64,000 nucleotides of DNA from Raillietiella orientalis. Its lineage: Eukaryota. The notes under the pieces were generated by a model. That model was not told the DNA's origin and did no database searches. It worked only from the letters and a program-made list of their open reading frames with translations. Shown here piece after piece: positions 41,893 to 50,290 of the stretch. Numbering within the stretch: the stretch's first letter is position 1; each line of letters opens with the position of its first letter. The stretch spans positions 186,001 to 250,000 of the forward strand of contig JAYWIR010000041.1 of assembly GCA_036172245.1 (NCBI GenBank), in the 5' to 3' direction. Position numbers and translations under genes: made by a program.

Positions 41893-43309
41893 CACTTGCA
41901 AATGACTTTAAGATCACGTATTAGAAGGAAAACTGCCACAAAAGGTGCTCCCCACTTGCCACAATGTTTCTCATTCGGCTTTGATGAAGTCTCAGCAACC
42001 AATCCATATATACCTCATTGCCAACAACTCCGGACGGTCACGCATTCGAAAAAGCTCCGGCAGCGTTAAGTCACCGTCCGAGACCTTTCGAAAGCAGCCG
42101 GGGTCATCCCAGAATTTCGTGCACCAAACACTCCCTTCTTTTCGTGTCTTTGGAAAAGGCTCTGAGCTTAGTGGTCAAAAAACACTCAGCTTTTTTCCAG
42201 TGGGTGCCGTACTCGGTAAGCAGAGTTCATAGCAGCAGATCATGACTGAAGAGAGTGTTATTAATTGTAATTCATCTTATTAGTTAATGGTCATTAGTTT
42301 TCCCAAAGTTTTTATGCTCTTGTAATGATAGAAGGTTTGCTCAGCATGCAAGCAATCCATGTTGGGAATCGTGTACTATGGCTCATTGGTTTCCGAAACC
42401 AATGAACAAGAGGGGTATTGAAAGATCTAACGTTCTTGACTGGGTGTACAATTCGTATAAAGGTATAAAGGCTCTCGAGATAAACTCGTAAATAAATTCT
42501 AAAACTGGAATAGTTTAGGGTGAACAGGTACGTTTCTACAAGCGTCGAAAGTTTCGTATTTGTTCTATGGTTTGCTCTAAAACAAAGCATTTGTTATTCC
42601 ACGACATGCTGTTCCAACCAACCGACAGCAACCAACCGAATCAAGGAAACGAAACTTTCTCTTAATATGAACTTCAATTTGAAATCAAAAATTAAATATA
42701 AAACGAACATCATGCCAGGAATGCCTGGAGGCAACTGCACATTCGTAGACTTTGCCAGAAGCATCGATATACTGTCAGGCACTATTACGCAGCTTCTTGC
42801 AAAAGTGAGGTCAGACACCCGAGAGACTTTGAATCAGATGAAATCAGATGAAGTCGAAGAGACAGCAACGGAGGATGGGGGCAGTGATCGAATCCCAGAA
42901 GAGGCTCTGGTGCATAAGTTTGGAAACTGACTAACTTACAAGATTCCCTGAATGCCTAGGACGTACTTCTGGATGATGATGAACATATCGGCAAAGAGGC
43001 ATGAAAATAAGAATAAGGTATTCATGGAAGTTCTGTTGTCGAAGGAAACCCTCCTTTGGAAGGTCCCTACAAACGAGGAAGCAGCCATATTACTCAGCTT
43101 ATCACAGCCAATCTTCATCTTTGCTATCCTAAGCTCTGGATCTATTTGTAATCTTGGAGGTAGTTTTATGCAAGAAGGTGCTGTTCTTGGATAATTTAAT
43201 GGTAAAACTTTTAGTGAGAAATTTTACACACAATCGCTTTCTTTTTCCTTGACTTCAGCTCCATCTTTTTCGTAACCAACCGCTATCACCGACATTACAT
43301 TAAAATCAT

Positions 43310-44085
43310 CAGATAGGATAATTCTAAAAGAAAGTCTGATGTCCGTTTGCTGCTAAACGATAAAAGGTCACAAAGCCTTTTGAAATAACCAAGATGGTTT
43401 TACTGAAATTATGATGGTGCAACGAGCATGGAGCAAATGTTATTCGCCTCCGCCTAGAAGGAGCTAGCTGCATAGTGAAGATTCGTTTTATGCATAATCT
43501 GAGACATAACCAAAGTGTTGTAAGTCTAGCTCAAATTAAGGCATTTAGTAAAAACGAATTGCTCATAAGAAAAACCGATGAATCAGAAGTAGCTATGATA
43601 GCCAGATTTTGCATTGACAACAAATCCACTCCTTGGATTCCATGAATGGAGATGGATTCCTCCTTAAGTTAGCCATCTAAGAGAGATTTATCTTTTGAAT
43701 GCACCCATTCAAAGACGGCTACTTGCAACAGGCAAATCGCTGGGAAAATGAAAATATGCATTGCACTTGCAAAAACGCTCGTTCCAAAGTGATTTCGATA
43801 ACACACAATTGCTGCTCTAGAAGAAGAAATTGATGCACATGTTAATAACTATTTACCCTTAAAAAACATGTAGAGAACCTCAAGACTGTACAAGATATCT
43901 TAGTGGTGTTTCTGTTATTGAAGAAATTTCATCTGCTGATGCGTTTAGTCATGCTAGACAGTTTACAGCTTTTGTCGGCTTAAATCCAGAGCATCAATCT
44001 GGCTCATCAATAAGTAGAAGCTCAACAAGTAAAATAGGCTCGTATTAGAAAAGCTCTTTATGTCAGCTATAGTAGTCAAGAATCC
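43310..44085 (+). mobile_element. IS110-family transposase pseudogene (Wolbachia/Rickettsiales-like), near full length
   Basis: Frameshifted reads: DNSKRKSDVRLLL, NNQDGF, LRLEGAS, RKTDESEVAMIARFCIDNK, ARQFTAFVGLNPEHQSGSSISRSSTSKIGS and RKALY. These are the DEDD N-terminal and Ser-containing C-terminal IS110 motifs. Confidence 0.9.
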
Positions 44086-44089
44086 AAGT

Positions 44090-44345
44090 GGTACCATCCC
44101 ATTCATCTTTGCTTATATTATATGTGTATTGCCACATAGTATAAGCTAAGGTAGATTTTGTTTTACCAATCATTCCACTTGCGTACTGGAGTGCAGAAAG
44201 GAAATTTCTCATATAAGAGCCAGGATGCTATAACATAATAACAAACAGAATTGGTCTATCAGTTATCACTGCACTGATCTCAATTAGCATCGTGATAATG
44301 ATTCAGTATGCAGCACATAAAAACAAGATAATCCACCTATGCTTA
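44090..44345 (+). pseudogene. Bacterial iron (Fe3+) ABC transporter permease fragment
   Basis: Hydrophobic reads FIFAYIICVLP, FVLPIIPLAYWS and IGLSVITALISISIVIMIQYAAHKNKII resemble FbpB-type permeases of Anaplasmataceae as I recall them. The frame contains stops. Confidence 0.55.
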
Positions 44346-44379
44346 ATTCATCGTGCTTCCTGTTTAAATTTTGGCTTAA

Positions 44380-47554: not shown

Positions 47555-48151
47555 AAAAATAACTGAATTTGATAAGAGTATAGAAAACCATTATAAAGTG
47601 GGTTGAACAAAATGAGAATAAGCAATGGAAAAAAAGAACCGACCAAATTTTGCTTAGCATAAAGAACTCCACAGAACAATAGGTATCGACTTTACAAAGT
47701 TCCAGGATTCGATGTGTTTACTATACAGAATATTATTTCAGAGACTGGCATAAACCATAAGAAATGGGCAGCGGAAGAACATTTTACTTCTTAGTTGGTG
47801 TAGAGTCAACAAAATAGAGTATCACAGAAGAAAAGGTATCGGAACAAGAACCTCTAAAGTGGAGATGGCCTCCTACTCGTTCTGTAGAAAATGGTAAAAG
47901 CGCACCAGCAACAAATTGCAAGAGATTGACAAAACGCGTAGGACCTCCAGAGGCAGTTATTTCCACTGCAAAAAAAATTGGCATGCATCTTTTATAGTAC
48001 GCTGCAATATGGACGGGGATATGTCGAAAAAGGAATGGAATGTTCTGAAAAACCTTATAGGAATAGAGTCGTAAAACATCTTAGCACAAAAGTCAGTGGA
48101 CTTGGCTACATGTTGGTAAAAAAAGATGAGTTAGTCCACGCAGTTTCTTAA
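47555..48151 (+). mobile_element. Second IS110-family transposase pseudogene (different subgroup), 3' half only
   Basis: Reads: KITEFDKSIENHYK, ELHRTIGIDFTK, PGFDVFTIQNIISETGINHKKWAAEEHFTS, PEAVISTAKK, LACIFYSTLQYG, YVEKG...RVVKHLSTKVSGLGYMLVKKDELVHAVS*. Confidence 0.88.
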
Positions 48152-48669
48152 GTTATCCATTTTTCTGGGCTTTCGTTCTTACAGAGTTAAAACCACTGTT
48201 TAGTCTTCCGATTTCAGCATTAGGATCACTAACATTCCTATAATTCAAAAATATTAGCCGAAGTACAAAGCATTTGGCAGGGAAATGAAAAATATCGTAT
48301 TTTTCGTCTAGTTAATAAACTATTAGAAAAGGCTAGATTATAGCTACTCTGTTAAAGCTTTATTCAATGAAGCTGCTAGCAGAATTCCTTCCGAGGACCA
48401 AGATCTGATCTGGAAGATTACAAGAAGCATATCAAAAGATTCGCCACTTGTAATTTTCGAACAGTTAACAAAGAGTCAAAAAAGACTATAAGAGCCATAA
48501 GAGTCAGAAGGTACATACTATGTCACTGGAAAACTCGTAGTAGATTGAGAATCGAAGCATTATGCTACGAGCTATGCAAGTTTCGTAAATAAGCTTTAGG
48601 TTTAGCATCTGATCGTAATAAGGCATCAAGAGAAAAAACAAGTCAACATGGATCTAGGTTGTACTAATA

Positions 48670-49690
48670 AGCTTTTTTTTTTCTTTGAACATAAAACCAA
48701 CACGCTACGTGCAGTACCGAATCCAAGGGTTTATCACCACGAAGTTGGAACAAAGGATAAAAAAAAAAGTTGTATCACGCAAGATGAATTACCACAAGCG
48801 ACAAAAGGGGGAGGGGAGATCGCACCTCCCACCCTGGTTGTCTCCGAAGAGGAACCCAGAAGGGAATCTCCTTCCTCATTCTCTCTGGAGGGACCCCCCG
48901 GGAAGGGGGTGGTTCTCTCCATTTCATCTTCTCCGAAGGGAACCCAGAAAGGATCCGCTAGTAGGAATTTCTTCTCCGGAGGGAACCCGCAAGGGAACCG
49001 CTCCTGTTCACTCCTCTGAAGAGAACCCCGAAGGGACGCTTCCGAAATTTAGAAGGGGCGCTGCAGCTTCCCACAGGGGGATCGCTCTCTCTTGCTTCCT
49101 TGCACTCTTCTGGAAAGGCGGCGACTCAAAGGGTCCCCCGGAATGGAGGGTCCGCTCCTTTAACATTTGGAGAGATGCCTTGATGCACCTACTCCATCTG
49201 AACGAACCGGAGTCCCTCATACTGGGGGATCCTCTCTCCTTTGCACAACCGGAGGGGGAACTCTCCACTCCTTGATTCCTGGAAGGACTCGAAGATCAAC
49301 GACTCCAATTGTTCCGGCCTTCATCGGGGGTCTCCGGTTTTAACCGCTACCGGTGCCGCACCGAATGTTTGTAGGCCAGCCAGAGTCATCTTGCAGGAGG
49401 AACTCGGAACCCAACGATGCAGGGGGTCAGTTTCAGTCGCAGTATTCGAACCCGCGAGGCATGGTGCCACGCGCGGAAACCGTAACCACAAAGCCTCCGA
49501 AGCGGACTGTACATGACTTGGTACCTTACACAGTGGCAATACGTTACAGCTGCAGCTGCGTGCACGACTTGGTTGAAAATTGCCACTGCATAAGGTTCCA
49601 TGCAACCAAGTTCATCGGAGTCCAGAAATCTTAATTTTAAACAAACTAGGTGTCTGCATAATCAAACTGGGTCCAACGTCAAGCACCCGA
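48670..49690 (-). mobile_element. Probable 5'-truncated non-LTR retroelement 3' end
   Basis: GC content rises abruptly inside AT-rich bacterial DNA. A T-run at about 48673-48682 reads as poly(A) on the minus strand, followed by a long purine/pyrimidine-skewed UTR-like tract. No diagnostic protein motif was found. Confidence 0.4.
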
Positions 49691-49739
49691 ATAGCACAGT
49701 GTAGCCTGATGTTCACCATCCAGCAGTTTTTGACTCTAC

Positions 49740-50290
49740 ACTAAGGTGTTACTATTAACTTTGCATTTGGAACTCTACAAGATGAACATGAGACATAAGC
49801 CATCCTTGACTTGACTTTTTGGATCTACCCCGTGTCCTCCACATATACCAAGTTTGATCTCTCTTTGATTTTTTCTGCCTTTCTCAATAGCTTTGTTGAT
49901 TAACTCTTCTGTTTCTTCAGCATCAAATCGGTCGTTTTCAAACATATTGTTTGCCTTATATTAATCTAGGAAACTGAAACGTCTTTTGAGAAACCCATAG
50001 TTTGTCCATTATTATTAGTGTCCAAACTAAAAAATTCTGCTTGTTTTGCTAGCTTAGCGATCAGTGCTCCTCGAGGCAGTTCTATCATTGTTCCTATTGA
50101 ATGACGCATCAAAATTTTCAACTTCTGGATTGCTATTTCGCATTGGAAAACAAATTCTTTCTCGCTTATGATAAAACGGATCCTAATTTCAGACTCGATT
50201 TCTGTTTTTTGTCTCTTCTGTTGTTCGTCTGCTGCGACGAATATCGCTTTAATTTGCATCATCTGCATCAAAATCGTGCTTAAGCGGCTG
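49740..50290 (-). pseudogene. ppdK: Pyruvate phosphate dikinase C-terminal fragment (bacterial, Wolbachia-like)
   Basis: Reads: MQIKAIFVAA, SIGTMIELPRGALIAKLAKQAEFFS, FENDRFD...IEKGRK..REIKLGICGGHGVDPKS and YVSCSSCRVPNAKL. These are PPDK PEP-binding domain motifs, with stops and frameshifts. Confidence 0.92.

Follow-up and report, generated by a model that had tools for sequence, protein, structure and literature searches.

Decayed Wolbachia DNA flanked by DYNLT and SELENOT-like genes of Raillietiella orientalis: a probable old nuclear transfer

A 64,000-nucleotide stretch of the Raillietiella orientalis genome (assembly GCA_036172245.1, contig JAYWIR010000041.1, positions 186,001 to 250,000; here called the window, with coordinates counted from its first letter) contains about 5.1 kb of Wolbachia-derived DNA within positions 43129–50259, located between host genes. 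We consider it highly likely that this locus, which has a DYNLT gene on one side and a SELENOT-like one on the other, is a nuclear Wolbachia transfer (nuwt), and that the transfer is old and decayed. The DNA is of Wolbachia origin, it has decayed, it carries nested insertions with target-site duplications (TSDs) and it is linked to host genes in the assembly. Read 5′ to 3′, the locus consists of a first IS110 element, a piece of an ABC-transporter permease gene, thiD-tenA, the start of topA and a mostly non-coding piece, followed by tuf, a second IS110 element, a gene for a hypothetical protein, a short repeat and the inverted 3′ end of ppdK. Non-bacterial DNA makes up about 1.8 kb of the 7 kb, namely a retrocopy of the glycosylasparaginase (AGA) gene, a 204-bp element and a block rich in guanine and cytosine (GC). 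A preliminary description of the window, made from the letters alone, had claimed a bacterial patchwork between host genes at 42930–50290 and had regarded it as an old, scrambled transfer from endosymbiont to host. The patchwork is real and slightly narrower than claimed, and the transfer is supported by the ppdK and tuf trees, the approximately unbiased (AU) test, the almost even spread of substitutions over codon positions and the insertions with TSDs.

Wolbachia genomes were reached through a phage WO IS110 protein, and positions 42700–50500 were compared by blastn with four and then with 60 genomes of the genus. All of them match (60/60), with E-values down to 1e-105, and nucleotide identity to living Wolbachia is 64–77% across the pieces. 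In the 38 genomes of the family that do not belong to the genus, 22 gave no match and 14 gave weak matches only (best E 2.9e-5 to 6.4e-11); the other two, G089 and G090, share only IS110 no. 1 with the window. In this search of 98 family genomes three candidates per genome were scored, and there are 175 weaker matches beyond those listed. The decayed ppdK fragment was also used as a query for related loci, and no relative was found in this way. We tested whether the fragments group outside Rickettsiales, and they do not.

Phylogenetic trees place the DNA inside the genus. The ppdK fragment is 63–71% identical to 52 Wolbachia and 55–61% identical to five outgroups. Its alignment (662 columns) comprised the window, the five outgroups and 52 of the 60 genus genomes, those being among the matches listed. 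In the maximum-likelihood (ML) tree of ppdK the window joins G011, G022 and G026 (ultrafast bootstrap support, UFBoot, 77) and then G010 (UFBoot 93), and it falls outside the clades of G001–G004 (wStri, wCon, a Psylliodes strain and an uncultured isolate). The tuf pieces are 70–76% identical to Wolbachia as compared to 52–61% for the outgroups. In the ML tree of tuf (41 Wolbachia, four outgroups, 626 columns) the window pairs with G005, and both belong to a group that includes G011, G022 and G026 (UFBoot 83); in the concatenation of ppdK and tuf G005 is still the sister of the window, although weakly (UFBoot 67). In the AU test on ppdK, a position of the window outside the monophyletic 52 Wolbachia was rejected (delta lnL, the difference in log-likelihood, 18.7; p=0.012), and one clade of Wolbachia together with the window was not (p=0.37). 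Grouping with the genomes that hold tenA (G014, G044 and G045) was rejected as well (p=0.0025). Taken with the matches in every genome of the genus, both trees and the AU test indicate derivation from within Wolbachia. The preliminary description had called the IS110 and PPDK residues Wolbachia-like, which agrees with the blastn matches to Wolbachia genomes and with the place of ppdK in the tree.

All the pieces examined are truncated and frame-broken, just as had been said of them before. More specifically, frameshifting indels and premature stops number 5 and 1 in ppdK, 5 and 2 in tuf, 6 and 3 in tenA, 1 and 4 in thiD, 1 and 1 in the permease and 11 and 7 in IS110 no. 2. Differences between the ppdK fragment and living Wolbachia amount to 0.229, 0.239 and 0.429 at codon positions 1, 2 and 3; among four living Wolbachia compared with the G046 reference they are about 0.07–0.14, 0.06–0.09 and 0.26–0.33, and the most divergent genome goes up to 0.22, 0.11 and 0.43. 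For tuf the corresponding values are 0.171, 0.164 and 0.390, as compared to 0.03–0.08, 0.03–0.055 and 0.31–0.41 among living Wolbachia, which vary chiefly at third positions. The terminal branch of the window measures 0.71 (ppdK) and 0.54 (tuf) substitutions per site; Wolbachia branches are mostly 0.01–0.15 and at most about 0.6 substitutions per site. By our estimate, the excess of about 0.12–0.17 per site at positions 1 and 2 would be neutral change after the transfer. Commonly assumed rates would then give an uncalibrated age of the order of 10^7–10^8 years; because this is reckoned without a host mutation rate, the age says "old" only. A single age for all pieces fits, because their identity to living Wolbachia is alike. 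The frameshifts and stops, the substitutions that ignore codon position and the two insertions with TSDs are signs of residence in the nucleus. As far as the broken frames tell, the locus is most likely without function today, a genomic fossil left by a past infection.

Integration can be read from tuf itself. A 5′-truncated processed retrocopy of AGA (46366–47145, + strand; Pfam Asparaginase_2, E=4e-34) sits inside this gene and has 63% GC, as compared to 35–40% in its surroundings. It spans AGA proteins from residue ~77–105 to the C-terminus (about 240 codons), with one frameshift near 46493–46516, a stop codon at 47113, AATAAA at 47115 and an A-run at 47138–47149. The closest solved structure is human aspartylglucosaminidase (3.3e-30, versus 1e-16 for a bacterial glycosylasparaginase), and the top database matches (120 listed of 843) are arthropod AGAs with 43–55% identity. 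Identical copies of a 15-bp TSD flank the retrocopy at 46351–46365 and 47146–47160. It is important to note that this 15-mer is one single stretch of the Wolbachia tuf reference and that the tuf alignment continues across the insertion: the first part of tuf (EF-Tu), from about amino acid (aa) 160, lies at 46036–46365 (+; blastn 70–73%, two places per Wolbachia genome, and blastx), the second part, to about aa 368, lies at 47146–47410 (+; blastn 77–85%), and the two align continuously once the retrocopy and one copy of the TSD are removed. The tuf reference carries the Pfam domains GTP_EFTU, D2 and D3. As an intron-less cDNA copy with a poly(A) signal, a poly(A) tail and a TSD, the AGA piece is a processed pseudogene; it is host-type, that is, eukaryotic and arthropod in type, and it landed in DNA that was already nuclear. 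Elsewhere in the window, a 225-codon open reading frame (ORF) at 38474–39148 (−) shows zf-RVT at E=3.8e-4, below cutoff, and is possibly a reverse-transcriptase remnant of a long interspersed nuclear element (LINE). LINE-type elements of this kind are the likely source of the machinery behind the AGA retrocopy.

A second insertion interrupts tenA. This is a 204-bp non-Wolbachia element with an A-rich 3′ part (44935–45138, unstranded), flanked by a 12-bp TSD (44923–44934 and 45139–45150) whose copies are identical at 10 of 12 positions. The tenA blocks on its two sides overlap by 11 bp in the reference (L092 2063–2073), and no second copy of the element was found in the window. Because its TSD differs at two positions and that of the AGA copy is perfect, the 204-bp element is suggested to be the older of the two insertions. 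The third non-bacterial stretch is an 802-bp, GC-rich (56%) block at 48787–49588 (unstranded) with degenerate internal repeats of about 40 bp, presumed to be host DNA. It has no match in the 60 Wolbachia genomes, and no Pfam, Rfam or tRNA match. We considered it as a tRNA-derived short interspersed nuclear element; this is unsupported, as there is no tRNA, no Rfam family and no second copy in the window.

How the mosaic came about can be proposed in a few steps. A Wolbachia endosymbiont would have passed DNA into the germline of an arthropod-like host, where it came to lie in the intergenic space that separates DYNLT from the SELENOT-like gene. The mosaic would consist of at least nine short pieces (0.1–1.1 kb) from unlinked places of the Wolbachia genome, and the fragmented bacterial DNA would have been end-joined at or near the time of integration, in one event. 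The insert would then have drifted without constraint, and host retrotransposition machinery would later have added the 204-bp element in tenA and afterwards the younger AGA copy in tuf. We lean slightly toward end-joining of several fragments in one event, which we favour over the collapse of a large colinear Wolbachia insert of tens to hundreds of kb that deletions and rearrangements would have worn down to about 5 kb. Collapse of this kind, which would still make the locus a nuwt, is possible and somewhat less probable. Large Wolbachia inserts are indeed known in other hosts (PMC4299567), some pieces have themselves suffered deletions (59 bp from tuf and 78 bp from IS110 no. 2, the latter also being about 170 bp short), and short unassigned gaps of 17, 120 and 64 bp part some of them. 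But unrelated truncated genes abut directly at ~44085, ~47405 and 48150, with no residue of intervening sequence at any of the three junctions, and collapse requires at least eight large deletions, each sparing a remnant of 0.1–1.1 kb. Moreover, none of the searched genomes has the pieces in this order, and their counterparts in G014 are far apart (845 kb, 267 kb, 1174 kb, 216/901 kb and 339 kb).

Living-Wolbachia reads misjoined to host contigs are the usual artefact to fear for Wolbachia-like sequence in arthropod assemblies. DNA from a living Wolbachia would be expected to be intact and nearly identical to some strain. None of the 60 species-level genomes is more than 77% identical to the locus, all examined pieces are broken, substitutions ignore codon position, and inside tuf lies a eukaryotic poly(A) retrocopy whose perfect TSD consists of tuf sequence. 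A chimeric assembly or contamination is therefore hardly credible, and it is the host-type insertions together with the codon-position-blind decay that speak for a true, old nuclear integration. A donor from elsewhere in Rickettsiales, or another bacterium altogether, is very improbable too. IS110 no. 1 does match the two genomes G089 and G090 from outside the genus at 66–68%, and the very long branch of the window could mislead its placement in the trees; ppdK, the permease, tenA and the hypothetical gene, however, match members of the genus only (among the matches listed for the 98 family genomes), no listed outgroup match is stronger than E=6.4e-11 apart from IS110 no. 1 in these two genomes, the outgroups are 10–15 points less similar in ppdK and tuf, and the AU test rejects an outside position. 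Short repeats specific to Wolbachia and a hypothetical gene of Wolbachia genomes are present as well. Domestication of some of the insert, for instance as an exon, regulatory element or non-coding RNA that serves the host genes beside it, we also regard as improbable. Transcription of some nuwts is on record for other hosts (PMC4046930, accessible text), and an unassigned 138-codon ORF stops at 42927, shortly before the insert. Against this, no bacterial piece has a long open frame, the decay is blind to codon position and no Rfam family matched.

Several points weigh against the nuwt interpretation as we have drawn it. Placement within Wolbachia is weakly resolved (UFBoot 77–93, with a very long branch). 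The physical linkage is drawn from one assembly and from internal evidence. The donor may have had a gene order unlike those of the searched genomes, Wolbachia genomes being much rearranged, so a larger colinear insert may have collapsed. The 802-bp GC-rich block and positions 42930–43128 are without an assigned origin, and the lack of function is deduced from broken frames alone. Finally, the placement of ppdK is in conflict with gene content, as the tenA-bearing genomes G014, G044 and G045 belong to another clade. Core genes near the small-genome group G011/G022/G026, combined with thiD-tenA and the hypothetical gene of other clades, therefore leave two readings. The thiD-tenA module for thiamine salvage may once have been more widespread in Wolbachia, or two donors may have contributed to one locus. 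It is conceivable, although we think it doubtful, that the locus is what remains of a Wolbachia lineage that is extinct or has yet to be sampled.

Regarding the individual bacterial pieces, two types of IS110 had been named before, and both are present, the first with a domain match above cutoff and the second through blastn to Wolbachia elements. IS110 no. 1 (43129–44084, +) is 67–71% identical by blastn to multi-copy Wolbachia elements; tblastn aligns it with a Wolbachia IS110 transposase over aa 17–303 of 351 with four frame changes, and it is broken and lacks the last ~48 transposase codons. Its ORF at 43863–44045 matches Pfam Transposase_20 (29 bits, cutoff 21.3). About 130 bp inside it (43186–43316) is a short multi-copy Wolbachia repeat that is missing from the G058 copy. 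IS110 no. 2 (47412–48150, +) comprises the C-terminal ~300 codons and is 64–69% identical by blastn to multi-copy Wolbachia elements, and 65% identical to a "mobile element protein" of the Wolbachia phage WO record MN180249. The Wolbachia references match NCBIfam IS110 (transpos_IS110, cutoff 140) with 223 bits for no. 1 and 289 bits for no. 2. Both elements belong to the IS110 family, no. 1 by its own match to the C-terminal Transposase_20 domain and both by their references; the N-terminal, RuvC-like DEDD domain was seen in a reference only (the phage WO element L001). Neither of them is an intact, potentially mobile IS110 with a whole transposase and both ends.

In the living Wolbachia G032 (L124, G032:C1:994495-997686, 970–3192) the hypothetical coiled-coil gene is itself shortened and is followed by IS110 type 2, and the copies of IS110 type 1 in G058 (L093) have broken transposase frames as well. 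From these broken copies it follows that IS110 elements and the hypothetical gene decay inside Wolbachia too. We looked for a junction between IS110 and the hypothetical gene in common with G032 and did not find it; in G032 the IS lies on the opposite side.

An iron permease piece had been proposed next to the first IS110 element. There is an internal piece of a fused ABC-transporter permease at 44086–44336 (+; aa 286–368 of 542; blastn 72–76%, one place per Wolbachia genome, and blastx), with Pfam BPD_transp_1 in the reference ORF; iron specificity is not shown, because no NCBIfam model passed its cutoff. The stretch 44337–47411, which had been taken for a cif-like pair, instead holds thiD-tenA, topA, a piece like one in G060, tuf and two host insertions, with gaps of 17, 120 and 64 bp left over. 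Among 50,697 phage records compared with the entire region by blastn, one WO record matched, at an IS110 only; no direct query with a cif protein was made. ThiD-tenA, topA, tuf, the hypothetical gene at 48150–48786 and the non-bacterial insertions were all absent from the preliminary description.

The thiD 3′ end (the last ~60 codons) and then the 5′ two-thirds of tenA lie at 44354–44934 (+), with 75% blastn identity to G014:C1:267298-267870, and the gene order is the same as in Wolbachia G014. By blastx this stretch matches the ThiD and TenA ORFs of L092, and the references carry Pfam Phos_pyr_kin and TENA_THI-4. The 3′ third of tenA with about 40 bp downstream follows at 45139–45449 (+; blastn 70% to L092 2063–2397; blastx aa 163–258). 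Once both parts are joined, tenA is nearly whole within 44354–45449. The tenA reference matches NCBIfam thiaminase II at E=4.9e-34, below cutoff. Matches to tenA were seen in at least 4 of the 60 species-level Wolbachia genomes, which is a lower bound, as five candidates per genome were scored in the 60-genome blastn. The gene is said to occur in few Wolbachia strains (PMC9084900, accessible text).

Downstream of tenA, the upstream region and the first ~50 codons of topA occupy 45570–45800 (+, the 3′ limit being approximate), with 71–74% blastn identity over 88 bp; 14 of the 60 Wolbachia genomes match, at one place each. The match place in L119 is the start of an ORF that, judged by eye, we take to be TopA (DNA topoisomerase I). 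A weak Pfam match to DUF7922 at 45591–45818 (E=0.0011) was set aside in favour of topA. A mostly non-coding Wolbachia-like piece follows at 45802–45971 (unstranded; blastn 77%, E=8e-29); it was found in one of the 60 genomes, G060, where it adjoins the 3′ end of a 332-aa ORF.

On the other side of IS110 no. 2 lies the gene for the hypothetical coiled-coil protein of Wolbachia (48150–48786, +; aa ~420–563, the whole ORF having at least 786 aa; blastx E=9e-15). By blastn it matches at 66–73% in six listed genomes of the 60 (G032, G041, G043, G044, G048 and G049). Its reference belongs to no NCBIfam family, and a Pfam match to DUF7310 is sub-threshold. Downstream of the ppdK stop, 49589–49692 (unstranded) is a short multi-copy Wolbachia repeat (blastn 73–80%); several Wolbachia genomes carry it, with one to five places listed for each. 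The inverted ppdK 3′ end, correctly recognized in the preliminary description, lies at 49738–50259 (−) and covers aa 689–870 of 878 (blastn 65–75%, one place per Wolbachia genome, and blastx); its Pfam match to PEP-utilizers_C reaches 28.2 bits against a cutoff of 22.8.

The window is eukaryotic. A Pfam scan of 122 stop-to-stop ORFs of at least 40 codons at 41.9–51.2 kb gave four solid matches: Transposase_20 at 43863–44045, Asparaginase_2 at 46284–46499 and at 46477–47112, and PEP-utilizers_C at 49969–50379 (−). Positions 42930–43128 have no blastn match in the Wolbachia genomes, and blastn found no Wolbachia-like DNA of similar length in the rest of 24–64 kb; the low-GC stretches at 39–42 kb and 53–57 kb are not Wolbachia-like.

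Host genes on both sides had been named DYNLT1 and SELENOT. On the left the claim holds for a spliced Tctex-1 (DYNLT) gene with two exons at 41285–41640 (−; Pfam Tctex-1, E=3.7e-20 and 1.6e-9), whose 46-nt GT..AG intron (GTAAGC...TCATAG) at 41428–41473 was read directly in the sequence. On the right, SELENOT-like exons at 54254–54921 (−) are weakly suggested to be SELENOT. The exon with the redox motif (54691–54921, −) has an in-frame TGA in ...SYSUGYRKAYEQY and, when TGA is read as U, matches Rdx at E=0.0011 and 19.5 bits, below the cutoff of 22.6. This exon was missed by regular expressions for the CxxU SelT motif and by Pfam on ordinary ORFs. The exon at 54254–54466 (−) may, judged by eye, be the C-terminal exon of SelT. 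In this assembly, the locus is thus contiguous with host nuclear genes, as the spliced DYNLT gene and the SELENOT-like exon with its selenocysteine codon stand on the same contig.

Other features of the window were noted in passing. A 138-codon open frame at 42514–42927 (+) stops some 200 bp short of the Wolbachia-like sequence; it matches Pfam NUCB1_N below threshold (E=0.017) and could be a host exon or due to chance. To the right there is a NUBPL-type P-loop NTPase at 58317–59371 (−; Pfam ParA/PF10609, best E=2.9e-37) and COX11 at 59770–60517 (−; CtaG_Cox11, best E=8e-24), and each match is split over adjacent ORFs in differing frames, as expected for very short introns. This layout and the 46-nt DYNLT intron suggest a host with very short introns. 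Short Wolbachia blastn matches within this region, at 58787–58836 (84%) and 59958–60032 (75–76%), are probably due to conserved genes of alphaproteobacterial ancestry and not to additional transferred DNA. A eukaryotic Oxidored-like N-terminal domain (57924–58259, +; PF09791, E=1.5e-7, above cutoff) stands head to head with the NUBPL-like gene. At 34043–34089, 47 bp are 91% identical to a place in Wolbachia G046 (E=7.8e-11), in GC-rich surroundings without other bacterial signal. The first 38 kb of the window is GC-rich (44–59%) as compared to 29–38% around the DYNLT and SELENOT genes; the longest open frames in 1–38000 (at least 170 codons) read as low-complexity, and Pfam was run from 36 kb on only.

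The locus can be compared with three known phenomena. In mosaic insertions of mitochondrial (NUMT) and plastid (NUPT) DNA in the nucleus, organelle DNA is captured at double-strand breaks by end-joining. Our locus resembles them in that unlinked donor fragments stand head to tail in one nuclear place and decay neutrally. It differs in that the donor is a bacterial endosymbiont and not an organelle, and in that the joining mechanism here is one that we infer. The AGA piece is like the processed pseudogenes made by LINEs, being intron-less and 5′-truncated, with AATAAA, an A-run and a 15-bp direct duplication; unlike in usual processed pseudogenes, its target was DNA of bacterial derivation.

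Nuwts are themselves well known, from filarial nematodes and Drosophila ananassae (PMC3849323, PMC4299567) and as Wolbachia "genomic fossils" in nuclear DNA of Dictyocaulus viviparus (PMC4046930, accessible text). As in the accessible text of the latter study, Wolbachia fragments are found here beside host genes, are inactivated by frameshifts and stops, and are read as the result of long residence and of a past infection. That text deals with a genome-wide set, whereas here there is one mosaic locus of 7 kb, in which two nested retro-insertions with TSDs give internal proof of integration and of the order of events. The words "transposon", "retrotransposon" and "interrupted" have 0 occurrences each in the accessible text of that one paper. 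To this known phenomenon the locus adds one more case, in which the internal evidence proves integration unusually clearly; it is no new kind of system.

Based on these results, the locus records a past Wolbachia infection of the host lineage. It demonstrates that integration can be proven without reads, by a poly(A) retrocopy whose TSD is bacterial tuf sequence, and it gives a relative timeline that runs from the transfer through decay to the 204-bp insertion and then to the AGA retrocopy. There is a hint, too, of which genes the donor carried, as thiD-tenA is rare in living Wolbachia. If the salvage module was once more widespread in Wolbachia, or if there were two donors, the host genome keeps a gene content of past symbionts that is absent from that of living strains.

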